A stretch of 64,000 nucleotides of DNA from Escherichia phage JP4. The stretch lies in the sequence record PQ330092. One strand, written 5' to 3'. Of this stretch, positions 1 through 64,000 are shown one piece after another. The stretch's first letter is position 1. Each line of letters starts with the position of its first letter. The notes under the pieces were generated by a model. That model had not been told where the DNA came from and made no database searches. It saw nothing but the letters and a program-made list of their open reading frames with translations. The position numbers and the translations under genes are program-made.

Positions 1-60
1 CTGTATAATATTTTACATAGCACGGGGGAGCGGTTCCCCCTGGTAACTAAGGATAATCAA

Positions 61-360
61 ATGAAAATTGCAATCATCGCCCTGGCTTTATCTGTTTCCT
101 CTTTCGCTGTTAATGCGTCGTTAGATGTGAGTAGTGAAAAATTCATTCAGTGCACTGTTGCGATGACCAATGAAAGTACGGGCGAGATTGTTTTAAAGGA
201 TTTAGAGATCCAGCCACAAGCATTTAAAAACGGGCCGTTCCATGAAGAAGACGAAAACGGTAGCACAACCATTTATTATGATGCAAGTACTAAGCGTGGA
301 TCGGTCACGGTTATGGATACAGAGAAAGTAACGCACACAGGAGTAATTAACTGTTTATAA
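61..360 (+). CDS. Small secreted/periplasmic protein (99 aa) with N-terminal Sec-type signal peptide
   Basis: MKIAIIALALSVSSFAVNA followed by polar mature region; -10 TATAAT at 4-9, 5'UTR hairpin 24-40, SD AAGGA; terminator follows. Confidence 0.75.
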   Translation: MKIAIIALALSVSSFAVNASLDVSSEKFIQCTVAMTNESTGEIVLKDLEIQPQAFKNGPFHEEDENGSTTIYYDASTKRGSVTVMDTEKVTHTGVINCL

Positions 361-377
361 TCTAGTACTGAATCACT

Positions 378-406
378 AGCCCACCTTAAACAGTGGGCTT
401 TTTTGT
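378..406 (+). terminator. Rho-independent terminator (AGCCCAC stem, T-tract)
   Basis: AGCCCACCTTAAACAGTGGGCTTTTTTG; identical 40-bp terminator cassette at 1091-1130. Confidence 0.75.
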
Positions 407-448
407 TTTGTAGTACTGCATACTTTAAAAATAGTTTTAAAAAAGTAG

Positions 449-476
449 TTGACATTACCACAAAAAGGCGTAGAAT
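449..476 (+). promoter_or_regulatory. sigma70-like promoter TTGACA-16-TAGAAT
   Basis: Hexamers read directly; about 115-nt leader before 600..1082. Confidence 0.6.
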
Positions 477-599
477 GTATTACATCAAGACGGGGAGCAC
501 TAAGTAGACCGCCAGTAAGTCGAACGAAAAACTGGACACGTCGATAAAACTTTGATACACTAATAAACGTAAACTAAACTTTAATTGAGGATTTATAAA

Positions 600-1082
600 A
601 TGGCTAATGTAAAATCATTCCTGAAAGCACTGATTTCAAACGATACTGTTATTGCTGCTGAATTGCTGGCTGAACTGGATAACGATACAATGAAAGCGGT
701 ACGCAACAATTTTAACATTGCGTACAGTGAAGCTAAAGAACTGCAAGCCAAAAAGGTAGCAGAACTGGAAGAACAGAAAAAAGCCCGTGAAGCAGAACTA
801 CAAGCAACAATCGAAAGTATCCAGGCGGCAGTAGTTGGATTGGATCTGGAAGTGGTTGTAGAAATGGCACATAAAGCCCTGGCGGTTAAGTACGGTGAAG
901 ATAAGCCGGAATCTAAGCCTAAAAAATGGATTCAGGAACGCGTAGCGGTAGTACTGGACAACGGGGAAGAATATCTTATTCCGGTGCGTGGTAACTGCAT
1001 TGCGGTAGTACTGGACGCTATCAAAGAAAGCGGTATGACTCGCGAGGAATGGATCGAAGCTCATCGCAAAGTTGAAGCATAA
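600..1082 (+). CDS. Hypothetical protein (161 aa), N-terminal coiled-coil-like region
   Basis: Start refined to MANVKS after SD GAGGA; promoter 449-476 with long leader; terminator hairpin 1104-1130. Confidence 0.7.
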   Translation: MANVKSFLKALISNDTVIAAELLAELDNDTMKAVRNNFNIAYSEAKELQAKKVAELEEQKKAREAELQATIESIQAAVVGLDLEVVVEMAHKALAVKYGEDKPESKPKKWIQERVAVVLDNGEEYLIPVRGNCIAVVLDAIKESGMTREEWIEAHRKVEA

Positions 1083-1103
1083 CAATTAAAGTACTGAATC
1101 ACT

Positions 1104-1130
1104 AGCCCACCTTAAACAGTGGGCTTTTTT
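1104..1130 (+). terminator. Rho-independent terminator (copy of 378-406)
   Basis: Same hairpin + T-tract. Confidence 0.75.
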
Positions 1131-61357: not shown

Positions 61358-61917
61358 ATATCAATGATTACCAATTTCATAGGCTTGAATTTCGTCATTG
61401 TGTTGCATTTGCAAAAACATTGATGTGCATCATTGACACTCTTTCATCCAAACAATTTCGTAAGGATAATGATTTATTTCTGAAAAAAGGTCGTGTGACA
61501 TCATCCGATATCTGTGTTGAACTATTTGTTGATATCAGTGTTGATACCGGAGACAGTACAAGGGTTGGTTGTATAGGTCATATTGGTACACATTGCTTCA
61601 CATGGAATCCAAATACAAGTCAAGTACGAATTGATTATAGAAATTCACGTTGGGTTGATCTTAGTACTGAATCCGATTTAGAATCAGCTATGTTCCAGCT
61701 AAGTTTAATTCACAATCCTAATGAACTTCTTTACATTATTACTTTCAGTTATCTGTTACAAAACTACGATAAACCATCAGGGTTTTTCATAGAATCGGAT
61801 ATAGAAGAAATTATGGAAGAGTTTCCTAGTTTAAAGGATATTCTGGTAGAAAAAGATTTCTATGAAGACTTCAGAGATTTATACGACATGCACTTGGAGT
61901 TATTTAAGAATGGATAA
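61354..61917 (+). CDS. Array paralog, long class (187 aa), AMFQLSLIHNP
   Basis: ATGA overlap. Confidence 0.6.
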   Translation: MNINDYQFHRLEFRHCVAFAKTLMCIIDTLSSKQFRKDNDLFLKKGRVTSSDICVELFVDISVDTGDSTRVGCIGHIGTHCFTWNPNTSQVRIDYRNSRWVDLSTESDLESAMFQLSLIHNPNELLYIITFSYLLQNYDKPSGFFIESDIEEIMEEFPSLKDILVEKDFYEDFRDLYDMHLELFKNG

Positions 61918-62428
61918 AGATGATATTCTAATTAGACTAATCAACAGTCTGTTAAATTTCGTGAATAGTGCCAGTGATACACACAATATAGGTGACATTG
62001 AATTCAAATCATTTGGAATGTACGGTGAGGAAAAAACATATTATGCATCAATGAAATTCCAAGATTATTATGAAATGTTAGTTTCATTATCATACGAAGA
62101 TGTGGACCCAAGATGGAGTTCCAGTATTTCACTATCGAGAATGGTAATTCGTAGTAAACATCGTTACATTTCGTCAAAGAATACTCCCAACTTGTTTGAT
62201 ATTGTTTTAAATGAAAATACCAATCCTATATCTAAACATGATATCGTACCTTTAACTGATGAAGTACTTTTTCAATTGAGTACCATTTGTGATGAAGATG
62301 TGATATCATGTATGAAAATTTATGAGAAGGTTGGGAGTGATATTCCCATGAACTATTACCTAACGATAGATGGAACATACCTCAGAGATGAAGCTCTAGC
62401 GTACATTGACAGTGTTTTACCAAAATAA
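61910..62428 (+). CDS. Array paralog, long class (172 aa; start refined), EVLFQLSTICDED
   Basis: Terminator 62429-62457 downstream. Confidence 0.55.
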   Translation: MDKDDILIRLINSLLNFVNSASDTHNIGDIEFKSFGMYGEEKTYYASMKFQDYYEMLVSLSYEDVDPRWSSSISLSRMVIRSKHRYISSKNTPNLFDIVLNENTNPISKHDIVPLTDEVLFQLSTICDEDVISCMKIYEKVGSDIPMNYYLTIDGTYLRDEALAYIDSVLPK

Positions 62429-62457
62429 AGACCCGTATTGGGTCTTTTTGTGTTTAC
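62429..62457 (+). terminator. Rho-independent terminator inside array
   Basis: AGACCCGTATTGGGTCT + TTTTGTGTTT. Confidence 0.7.
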
Positions 62458-62460
62458 GTC

Positions 62461-62489
62461 TTTACAGTAGCATTCAGATGTGTTATAAT
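62461..62489 (+). promoter_or_regulatory. Internal array promoter TTTACA-17-TATAAT
   Basis: Read directly; follows terminator 62429-62457. Confidence 0.55.
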
Positions 62490-62516
62490 CGCTTTTAATA
62501 GAGTACAGGAGAAGAT

Positions 62517-63083
62517 ATGAGTACTGAATTAATTAAAGAAGTTACCTTACTTCTGAAGCATTGTTTTAAGTTCATTCCTGATACTGGTTCACGCCAGTAC
62601 ATTAAAGTTAATGAGAAATATAACATCAATATCCTTGTATCTGAAACTGCGAGCAGTTATGCTAACATTGAGTTGGATTCTGAAGAAAAATATACAGTAT
62701 TACAAATCATAGCAGATGTACAACGTAAACAAGATTATCGTTCTTCATTTTACAACGATTATCTGTGTGTTTGCTCAAACTTCAGTGAGAATAAAATTGT
62801 GTATAAGAATTTATACACACATGAAGTGATTGATACATATAATTATAAAATTTCATCTGATGAATACAATGTGCTAATGTTCAACGCAAACCTTTTGTAT
62901 GATGCCAGTACTGTACGCTGTTTAGAGTTAGCATATAAAATTCCAAAGATCATGGAAAGAAAAGATTTGATTCACTTTAAAACTATTTTAAAATACAGTA
63001 CAAAAGAATTAGAGGATTTAGTACAGGCTCTTAAGAATTTCATTAATGAACATGTACCTGTTAAATTCGAGGATGCACAATGA
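62517..63083 (+). CDS. Array-associated protein (188 aa), degenerate motif
   Basis: Promoter 62461-62489; SD CAGGAGAAG. Confidence 0.6.
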   Translation: MSTELIKEVTLLLKHCFKFIPDTGSRQYIKVNEKYNINILVSETASSYANIELDSEEKYTVLQIIADVQRKQDYRSSFYNDYLCVCSNFSENKIVYKNLYTHEVIDTYNYKISSDEYNVLMFNANLLYDASTVRCLELAYKIPKIMERKDLIHFKTILKYSTKELEDLVQALKNFINEHVPVKFEDAQ

Positions 63084-63664
63084 ACCATATCAGAACTAAA
63101 ATTTTGAGACTCATGCATGACATTGCAGAACTTTCAGAGATTCATGACATTACAGAAATTGTTGAATTTGATGATTATCGACTGAAAATTGAAAACAAAT
63201 CCAAACATCGTTTTGGATCAGTTCAGTTGGATGTATATAAAACTTATGAATTTTCTAAAAAAATTAAAAGTTCATGGGATACGATTACTATGTACATTCG
63301 CACATCCAGAAATCGTGAACGTATTGGTTCTATTTCTTCTAATATGGTATTTGCGAATGCATTACATGAAAAAATGAATAAAATTGTAGAATCTGATTTC
63401 AGTGAAGATGATGGTTTTATTGGGTTGGATGTTCCACCAGAATTAGACCAAAGTGAAGATATTCGAGATGCATTCATTTTCCAGAAATCATTGTTGGACA
63501 ATTACAAAGAATTCGAGTACTTAATGCTTTGTTACGATACTGCAAAAGTTCTTGATTGTGGTGAACTAGTTATGTACAATGATTTTATCAATTACAAGAC
63601 TGATGTTCTGAATACACTACTTCAAAATATAGAATCGGTTAAGGAAAAATATGAACGCTTATAG
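63080..63664 (+). CDS. Array paralog, long class (194 aa), AFIFQKSLLDNY
   Basis: ATGA overlap. Confidence 0.6.
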   Translation: MNHIRTKILRLMHDIAELSEIHDITEIVEFDDYRLKIENKSKHRFGSVQLDVYKTYEFSKKIKSSWDTITMYIRTSRNRERIGSISSNMVFANALHEKMNKIVESDFSEDDGFIGLDVPPELDQSEDIRDAFIFQKSLLDNYKEFEYLMLCYDTAKVLDCGELVMYNDFINYKTDVLNTLLQNIESVKEKYERL

Positions 63665-64000
63665 TTATATGACAGAACGCCATCAGTTATTATATGATAT
63701 CAGTACAAAAATGTTATCAATTGTTAGTAGTGCAAAAGAAATTGAAAAACAATACCTCATCCGTGATGTAGCAATTTCATCTAAATGTTGGTCCAATGAA
63801 TATTACGATCACGGTATTCTTACTATTTCTGGGGCTAGAAATATTTGTATTGTAAAAAATAAAAATAAAAGTAATGAAGAGTGTGAGATTATAACCGATA
63901 TACAAATTAAGGATGATGGAAGTTTTTCACACCACCCATTCCATATTAGTACTATTGGTGTTTTATATAATATTAAAGTACTATTCGGTGATGAAGAGTA
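63651..64000 (+). CDS. Hypothetical protein, 3'-partial (runs off window end)
   Basis: SD AAGGAAAAAT then ATG 63651; open to end of window. Confidence 0.5.
   Translation, partial: MNAYSYMTERHQLLYDISTKMLSIVSSAKEIEKQYLIRDVAISSKCWSNEYYDHGILTISGARNICIVKNKNKSNEECEIITDIQIKDDGSFSHHPFHISTIGVLYNIKVLFGDEE

Follow-up and report, generated by a model that had tools for sequence, protein, structure and literature searches.

Short DNA words that recur at a many-fold excess throughout a genome, within genes and in all reading frames, are known from the DNA uptake sequences of Neisseria (DUS) and Haemophilus (USS) and from Chi. The hexamer AGTACT behaves in the same way in Escherichia phage JP4, of which we analysed a stretch of 64,000 nucleotides (sequence record PQ330092; hereafter the window), and in the jumbo phages related to it; like DUS, USS and Chi, it shapes codon and amino-acid choice, is common to related genomes and would mark 'self' DNA. 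However, those words are asymmetric and bacterial, occur about once per 1-5 kb and have known readers (ComP, the uptake receptor and RecBCD), whereas AGTACT is fully palindromic, belongs to a virulent phage, occurs once per 385 bp and has a role in promoter architecture. Here we show that this palindromic word is under positive and purifying selection, extends over the whole genome, is inherited throughout a group of phages and lies in early promoters at either of two set positions.

Sites that are spread across a phage genome, some in promoters and some elsewhere, are likewise found in mycobacteriophage L5 ('stoperators') and phage P1 (C1 operators), in each of which one phage DNA-binding protein acts at tens of genome-dispersed sites. 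The L5 and P1 sites are 13-17 bp long, asymmetric, intergenic and orientation-dependent, and number ~15-35 per genome of a temperate phage; in contrast, AGTACT forms ~900 palindromic sites, mostly within genes, in a lytic jumbo phage. Phages SPO1 and phi29, which also have terminal repeats or early-gene clusters, make an abundant protein (TF1 and p6/p4, respectively) that binds sites overlapping early promoters and organises the genome as well. TF1 targets DNA with hydroxymethyluracil and p6 responds to DNA shape, neither of them a strict hexamer, and we know of no over-represented word associated with TF1 or p6. The target of ScaI and Eco255I is the identical hexamer AGTACT. Phage genomes normally avoid short palindromes, however, and restriction targets are among the words avoided; nearly all other such palindromes are also avoided in the phages described here.

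The same AGTACT core lies within GTGAGTACTCAC, the site bound by the Escherichia coli nucleoid-occlusion factor SlmA (PMC3020112), which, as with Noc and ParB-type proteins, is read by a dimeric helix-turn-helix protein and confers positional 'identity' along the chromosome. Unlike the SlmA site, the phage word prefers C/G over G/C beside the core, and SlmA-like flanks are ~9-fold depleted; SlmA sites number tens per chromosome. The openly searchable literature, a scope that leaves subscription papers such as the GAP32 genome paper outside, contained no paper linking AGTACT to these phages. Extreme avoidance of palindromes together with an 8- to 20-fold enrichment of a single one, across several genera and in early promoters, is therefore a pointer to some protein-DNA system that has yet to be described.

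Enrichment of AGTACT in the window

AGTACT is the top hexamer of the window, with 292 copies against 21, 18 and 49 expected from order-0, Markov-1 and Markov-2 models, respectively. The excess persists against a Markov-3 background (292 vs 109, z = 17.5), although higher-order models absorb part of the signal because the pentamers AGTAC and GTACT are themselves inflated by AGTACT. Part of the window is present twice, positions 1-14,905 repeating positions 20,115-35,019 base for base (100% identity, offset 20,114 bp), so that 94 of the 292 sites are counted double. The non-redundant part (14,906-64,000, 49 kb) contains 198 sites against 16.4 expected. The over-representation reported in a first-pass annotation of this DNA is therefore real and indeed stronger than claimed, and where about 16 sites had been estimated for 14,760-16,560 we found 18 (~0.6 expected).

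As a control for coding DNA, synonymous codons were shuffled among all called open reading frames (ORFs), which keeps the proteins and the codon usage. Non-redundant coding DNA holds 104 sites against 25.4 ± 4.3 after shuffling (z = 18), and these sites fall into all three phases (35 AGT-ACT, 28 xAG-TAC-Txx and 41 xxA-GTA-CTx), including the AGT-ACT and xxA-GTA-CTx phases that had been pointed out before. Intergenic DNA holds 92 sites against 3.4 ± 1.9 when shuffled. The count thus stays far outside the normal range, and codon bias and promoter duplication were both ruled out as the cause by the synonymous shuffling, by per-frame expectations and by the genome-wide distribution described below. 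All contexts named in the first-pass annotation (-35 regions, -10 boxes, terminators, the non-coding hub and coding sequence) were found, with AAAGTACTTGCA occurring 14 times and AGTACTGTATAAT 10 times in non-redundant DNA. The excess is not, however, window-wide as had been stated, since 35,020-40,040 and 42,707-50,960 contain no AGTACT. Also absent from that annotation were the terminal duplication, the existence of motif-free DNA, the fixed placement at two points of the promoter and the genome-wide and group-wide scope.

Megablast assigned the window to jumbo coliphages of the 121Q/PBECO4 type (genus Asteriusvirus), with vB_EcoM_CRJP21, fEgEco12 and E9.1 at 95-97% identity. Position 14,906 matches base 1 in the records of these three phages, an apparent left physical end, and direct terminal repeats (DTRs) of ~20-21 kb have been shown in Asteriusvirus by PhageTerm and, for fEgEco12, additionally by restriction digests (PMC13070987, PMC11895373). 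The window accordingly begins with the final 14.9 kb of the right DTR and continues through the complete 20,114-bp left DTR into unique DNA, and the tandem copies look like a product of circularisation or cutting of the record and not a biological tandem duplication. The DTR is the early-gene region, with small genes that have one promoter apiece.

1..14905, no strand: right DTR copy, last 14,905 bp; 94 AGTACT sites, duplicate of 20,115-35,019
14906..35019, + strand: complete left DTR, 20,114 bp; 133 AGTACT sites, 6.6 per kb, ~20x expectation
14906..16579, no strand: non-coding left-terminal 'hub', 1.67 kb; 17 AGTACT sites, 10 per kb, many as TTCAGTACTGAA

Genome-wide distribution and symmetry of the site

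The genome-wide pattern was analysed in TH47, an unannotated relative whose whole 352,450-bp genome was assembled for this purpose. AGTACT is the top hexamer there as well (917 vs 119 expected). Its density over the whole ~350-kb genome is ~2.3-2.6 per kb (~1 per 385-400 bp), whatever the gene position, reading frame or strand; replication, nucleotide-metabolism and structural genes have ~2-2.5 per kb, and the homologue of the DTR reaches 5-8 per kb. Outside this DTR-like region, coding and non-coding DNA do not differ (2.3 and 2.1 per kb), the profile is flat around start and stop codons, and the spacing is Poisson-like (coefficient of variation 0.97). Regular spacing or helical phasing on the genome scale was accordingly rejected; only promoter pairs are spaced, at 20-24 bp.

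All three reading frames contribute to the excess in TH47 when compared with the expectation from protein sequence and codon usage (AGT-ACT 3.4x, xAG-TAC-Txx 5.3x, xxA-GTA-CTx 5.0x). Moreover, Ser-Thr (1.51x) and Val-Leu (1.32x) are over-represented as dipeptides whereas the reversed Thr-Ser (0.95x) and Leu-Val (0.96x) are not, implying that the DNA word has shaped even the proteins.

The flanks of AGTACT are mirror-symmetric, with C at -1 and G at +6 each enriched 2.6x and G at -1 reduced to 0.47x, and further out there is weak T-richness. The resulting octamer CAGTACTG accounts for 203 of the 917 TH47 sites, compared with 28 expected from independent flanks and ~3.6 from base composition (~56-fold). 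In the window this octamer occurs 45 times against 0.5 expected, and TTCAGTACTGAA 8 times against 0.005. The optimum form is CAGTACTG, and in non-coding DNA TTCAGTACTGAA. One-mismatch neighbours lie at 1.0-2.2x (AATACT/AGTATT 1.1-1.3x, TGTACT 1.9-2.2x), with the exception of AGGACT/AGTCCT at 0.4x. As a separate observation, AGTACA is 4.8-fold enriched on the + strand of 14906-64000 (92 copies) and its reverse complement TGTACT 2.1-fold (29 copies), a strand asymmetry for which the palindrome offers no explanation.

Conservation and turnover across phage genera

Between the window and TH47 (88% identity), 148 of 181 aligned AGTACT sites are intact (82%), compared with 59% of all hexamers and 63% of the immediately flanking hexamers. 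Per-base identity is 0.92-0.94 within the motif and mostly 0.87-0.90 beside it, and gains and losses of sites are in balance. For a test between genera, we used codon alignments of 24-25 orthologue pairs that are 64-68% identical in nucleotide sequence. The number of sites in these shared genes (29 kb) is 54-61 in every genus, but only 18-33% of the positions coincide, against a background of 12-17%. It is the density that stays conserved; single sites are mildly protected and slowly replaced.

Counts across genera were made by comparing the DNA around the portal gene, with the following numbers of AGTACT sites:

RaK2, portal region: 76 observed vs 14 expected
Yersinia fHe-Yen9-04, portal region: 91 observed vs 14 expected
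Cronobacter GAP32, portal region: 41 observed vs 6.6 expected
Xanthomonas XaC1, portal region (portal 61% identical): 59 observed vs 6.7 expected
Pseudomonas PA5oct, portal region (portal 42%): 1 observed vs 14 expected
Agrobacterium Atu_ph07, portal region: 2 observed vs 6.6 expected

The excess is common to seven named phages, namely RaK2, fHe-Yen9-04, GAP32, XaC1, CBB, Serratia BF and 121Q. The one rV5-like Vequintavirus genome that we checked has 9 AGTACT sites against 41 expected, despite having some early genes in common with the window. We also scanned IMG/VR for the promoter form AAGTACTTGCA-N17-TATAAT. Matches were obtained in contigs taken as 121Q, CBB, GAP32, Serratia BF and fHe-Yen9-04 and in five more large contigs, four of ~355-366 kb and one of 109 kb. 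All of these large contigs contain AGTACT at 12-20x expectation and lack GCGC. Four short contigs (AGTACT 7-8x, no GCGC) look like further relatives, and the remaining contigs mostly had observed-to-expected ratios near 1 and were apparently chance hits, so that AGTACT excess and zero GCGC cleanly separate true relatives from chance hits among the IMG/VR contigs.

Two fixed positions in early promoters

The DTR promoter set comprised 46 predicted sigma-70-like promoters. The motif is carried by 36 of them, with 34 site occurrences at exactly -27 or -7/-8 from the -10 hexamer. In type I promoters (n = 16; AAAGTAC-TTGCAa-N16-TATAAT) AGTACT starts 27 nt upstream of the -10 hexamer, and in type II promoters (n = 18; TTGACA-N9/10-AGTACTG-TATAAT) it starts 7-8 nt upstream. 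The motif centres consequently lie near -36.5, with a 1-nt overlap with the -35 element, and near -16.5, directly upstream of the -10 element, and several promoters hold both sites, 20-24 bp apart. The form AAGTACTTGCA-N17-TATAAT was found again in other genera. Within the DTR-like region of TH47, site density also peaks 0-40 nt past stop codons, upstream of terminators. Examples from the window are as follows:

16549..16581, + strand: type I promoter; AGTACT 16549-16554 overlaps the first T of TTGCAC 16554-16559; 16-nt spacer; TATAAT 16576-16581
15271..15298, + strand: type II promoter; TTGACA 15271-15276; AGTACT 15286-15291; directly followed by TATAAT 15293-15298
22020..22055, + strand: two-site promoter; AGTACT 22020; TTGACA 22027-22032; AGTACT 22042 (22 bp apart); CATAAT 22050-22055
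20478..20522, + strand: post-stop site just upstream of an intrinsic-terminator hairpin; AGTACTGAATCACTAGCCCAC...GTGGGCTTTTTT

Many DTR promoters also have a GGGGAG-N-CTCCCC hairpin a few nt downstream of the -10 element, past a conserved TATAATGTTTTACATC leader. This hairpin is found at 14 places within 17056-32652 (e.g. 21758, 23571 and 27322), resembles the promoter-early stem-loop cassettes of T4-type phages and is the reason for an excess of the hexamers CTCCCC and GGGGAG.

Motif-free stretches among paralogous genes

Downstream of the DTR, sites are distributed very unevenly:

35020..40040, + strand: first motif-free stretch; 0 sites; tight array of a 22-member family of ~70-aa paralogs
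40041..42706, + strand: motif-rich stretch between the motif-free ones; 17 sites, 6.4 per kb, mostly within ORFs; the ORF at 41774-42178 has 5
42707..50960, + strand: second motif-free stretch; 0 sites in 8.25 kb, ORFs tightly packed
50961..64000, + strand: AT-rich paralogous gene arrays carrying the motif in coding sequence; 48 sites, 3.7 per kb

The two motif-free stretches (13 kb) contain 0 sites, compared with 4.3 expected by composition and ~34 by genome-average density. The array of 22 paralogs spans 35117-41230, with pairwise identity of ~38%, overlapping genes and almost no AGTACT; none of the 22 proteins matched Pfam. Nor did any ORF of the block at 42936-50648, which includes several of 170-207 aa and one 3-member family and has no AGTACT. 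An 8-member paralog family at 51.9-60.8 kb, which is equally diverged, carries 4.8 sites per kb. Recent tandem duplication was therefore rejected as the origin of the motif-free stretches, the 22 paralogs being only ~38% identical, like the neighbouring family with its 4.8 sites per kb. At the equivalent place in TH47 there are likewise two gaps, of 8.4 kb and 5.0 kb, and two long TH47 ORFs without sites resemble mobile genes, with zinc-ribbon/DUF723 and DUF7487 domains. That 13 kb can remain motif-free among diverged paralogs speaks for selection over drift or a genome-wide mutation bias; region-specific selection, or a foreign origin of those regions, can explain the stretches.

Purged palindromes and the contrast with host DNA

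AGTACT is the lone strong positive outlier among palindromic hexamers. Of the 64 palindromic hexamers, 23 are missing from TH47, with 10-35 copies expected for each, and several type IIS sites (GAGGAG, GAGACC) likewise have none. GCGC is missing altogether from the non-redundant window (0 vs 44 expected) and from TH47 (0 vs 329); it is absent in every in-group locus sampled and present in PA5oct and Atu_ph07, so that its absence tracks AGTACT enrichment exactly across the phages sampled. The second most enriched palindromic hexamer is GTGCAC, at 2.4-3.9x in every in-group genome sampled (TH47, XaC1 and GAP32), which may be a minor second signature word. The outgroup phages had no comparable enriched palindrome, the highest being CTGCAG at 4.5x in PA5oct.

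The host shows the opposite pattern. A 50-kb sample of E. coli K-12 contains 3 AGTACT (11.6 expected) and 373 GCGC (~7 per kb), AGTACT being ~40 times rarer in this sample than in the phage. With opposite frequencies in phage and host, the two words therefore split phage from host DNA almost perfectly. An unlikely further possibility is a two-word code by which the RaK2/121Q group would tell its own unmodified DNA from that of the host, with AGTACT as a positive tag (~1 per 400 bp) and GCGC as a negative one. A phage protein at AGTACT would then protect, compact or compartmentalise phage DNA and re-programme early promoters, while GCGC, absent from several hundred kb of phage DNA, would let a phage nuclease or transcription blocker hit the host only. 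Such a code, if true, would be a sequence-based functional equivalent of the hydroxymethylcytosine of T4 or the nucleus of phiKZ.

Possible readers of AGTACT

Our leading reading, which we hold tentatively and with somewhat less than even confidence, is that AGTACT serves as a recognition word with two-fold symmetry on double-stranded DNA, favoured by positive selection and passed down through the whole RaK2/121Q enterobacterial jumbo group. Its reader is most likely a two-fold-symmetric binder of double-stranded DNA, probably a phage-encoded homodimer among the unannotated ORFs. Such a homodimer would bind AGTACT at early promoters, with AGTACT acting as an operator, and a dimer bound near -36.5 or -16.5 would cover part of the -35 element and the spacer or lie next to them, most simply shutting off or re-programming early transcription by host RNA polymerase, as the promoter placement itself suggests. 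At the ~900 dispersed copies, the same protein could load on, coat or otherwise preferentially mark phage DNA. The dispersed recognition word put forward in the first-pass annotation, the reverse of restriction avoidance, is thus borne out by its presence in all frames and in non-coding DNA, its symmetry, the purifying selection and the cross-genus density. Of the reader classes proposed there, a methyltransferase is the least supported, only a Dam-family enzyme and a C5 methylase having been found, and nothing argued for a nickase or a packaging factor.

Several observations weigh against an operator read by a phage dimer. As many as 83% of the TH47 sites lie inside ORFs and hence beyond regulatory regions, and transcription factors do not usually have a motif so dense and Poisson-distributed within genes. 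Nor is palindromy by itself proof of a dimeric protein reader. Because many DTR promoters can be seen to be copies of one another, part of the promoter association could reflect shared ancestry and not independent selection. A Pfam search for DNA-binding domains in 72 window ORFs and 290 TH47 ORFs (362) yielded no classical helix-turn-helix repressor and no HU/IHF-type or ParB-type protein among the matches listed, which comprised a sigma-70-like factor, a DksA/TraR zinc finger, a ParE-like toxin, a GNAT acetyltransferase and HNH and TnsA-like nucleases; more than 80% of the scanned ORFs had no Pfam match. A PHROGs scan of the 72 window ORFs for such domains gave nothing usable. Finally, two DTR proteins of 203 and 113 aa, which are conserved across genera and were the best conserved of those followed up, were rejected as the reader: they also occur in rV5-like phages, and since the one genome checked has no AGTACT excess they are unlikely to read it.

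The genes of these two proteins (18433-19041 and 24197-24535) have homologues of 58-66% identity in rV5-like (Vequintavirinae) coliphages of ~135-143 kb, indicating that early-gene cassettes have been exchanged by phage groups that are not related. Of the 9 AGTACT sites of the rV5-like genome, 6 lie at 105-120 kb, a stretch that includes the homologue of the 203-aa gene.

Alternative explanations

Among the alternatives to a double-stranded recognition word read by a phage dimer, the one that most deserves attention, unlikely though it is, makes AGTACT the target of a phage-encoded modifying enzyme (a methyltransferase or other base modification) that provides a self-mark or protection. A six-base palindrome with symmetric flanks is the type of target used in type II restriction-modification, a palindrome tolerated in genomes otherwise purged of restriction-type palindromes wants explaining, and group members do encode methylases (PMC3622015, PMC5259590). 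However, protection accounts for tolerance, not for an 8- to 20-fold enrichment or for fixed promoter positions, and a dedicated AGTACT methylase seems unlikely from the enzymes found. The single amino-methyltransferase motif in six-frame translations of TH47 sits within a Dam-family enzyme (PF05869), and there is one C5 methylase, the gene of which (25438-27327 of one assembled piece, - strand) is split by an intein with Hint and LAGLIDADG domains. Bisulfite data tie cytosine methylation in RaK2 to CpG (PMC3622015), and because AGTACT has no CpG, a C5 methylase of that specificity would not fit. The Pfam and methylase-motif scans of TH47 revealed no enzyme gene matching a ScaI/Eco255I-type restriction-modification system, and ten enzymes including EcoRI, NsiI, SpeI and HindIII, ScaI not among them, digested fEgEco12 DNA in agreement with in silico prediction (PMC13070987), implying that there is no global base substitution. 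That a host protein is recruited to the sites or titrated away by them, as by decoys, is quite unlikely. The AGTACT core of the SlmA site GTGAGTACTCAC (PMC3020112) would fit, and given the rarity of AGTACT in host DNA 900 copies would be a strong sink; yet the GTG...CAC arms of the SlmA site are specifically disfavoured in TH47, with GAGTACTC occurring 3 times against 28 expected and 6 sites within two mismatches of the SlmA site against ~22, and SlmA was rejected as the reader on this ground. Any other host reader would have to be conserved in all hosts, because phages that infect Xanthomonas, Yersinia, Klebsiella, Cronobacter and Pectobacterium have retained the trait.

Molecular drive, in which biased repair or gene conversion (like the very-short-patch repair of E. 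coli) or a bias in replication, recombination or packaging creates AGTACT, is rather unlikely. The uniform density in coding and non-coding DNA, the Poisson-like spacing and the turnover of positions at constant density are hallmarks of uptake sequences that accumulate by drive, but one-mismatch neighbours are not depleted save for AGGACT/AGTCCT (0.4x), 13 kb of anciently diverged paralog arrays are site-free next to arrays with 4-6 sites per kb, and the placement in promoters is stereotyped. It is improbable that the word is read on single-stranded DNA or RNA, as a primase start, a loading site for an elongation factor on the non-template strand or an RNase site, and is palindromic in order to serve both orientations. 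A palindrome is indeed present on the transcript and on the lagging-strand template in either direction, and ~1 site per 400 bp would fit repeated loading events; however, the flank preference is mirror-symmetric even with nearly all genes on one strand, terminal DNA that looks non-transcribed and promoter spacers are as site-dense as genes, and known primases recognise 3-5 nt. Least credible, and very improbable indeed, is that the word itself has no function and results from the duplication of promoters, from codon bias or from the removal of other palindromes. The DTR promoters are clearly related copies and a Markov-4 expectation nearly equals the observed count, but that agreement is circular, since the pentamers behind it owe their own excess to the motif. 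The count lies at z = 18 relative to synonymous shuffling, the excess extends to all frames and to structural and replication genes remote from early promoters, amino-acid order is affected, and the sites evolve more slowly than their flanks.

The preferred reading, a phage protein recognising AGTACT on double-stranded DNA, bears on genome protection and organisation, and on the switching-off of early transcription, in jumbo phages that form no nucleus and whose DNA is chemically ordinary. The group consists of 350-kb phages in which >80% of the genes are unannotated, and the motif offers a direct experimental handle on both the reader and the promoters. Asteriusvirus phages are under development as therapy for pathogenic E. 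coli. AGTACT density also provides a cheap, alignment-free group marker for metagenomes.

Other features of the terminal repeat

The non-coding left terminus contains degenerate tandem repeats at 15713-15812, with units of 16, 24 and 48 bp (GACGGCTAAACGGCTAGATG...), which are possibly a packaging, end-recognition or origin element. At 16437-16520, immediately upstream of the first promoter and gene, a 53-bp unit (GATTCAGTACTGAATAATAGTACTCCTATATAGAAAGA...) is present twice, each copy with two AGTACT sites 13 bp apart. The DTR further encodes a protein with a ParE-like toxin domain, which is conserved in eight sampled relatives, as well as a DksA/TraR-type zinc-finger protein, a GNAT acetyltransferase and a protein with a weak kinase-like match (29822-30073, 25979-26233, 26301-26654 and 30681-31262, respectively). 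From their predicted domains, a role of these four proteins in host takeover is plausible.

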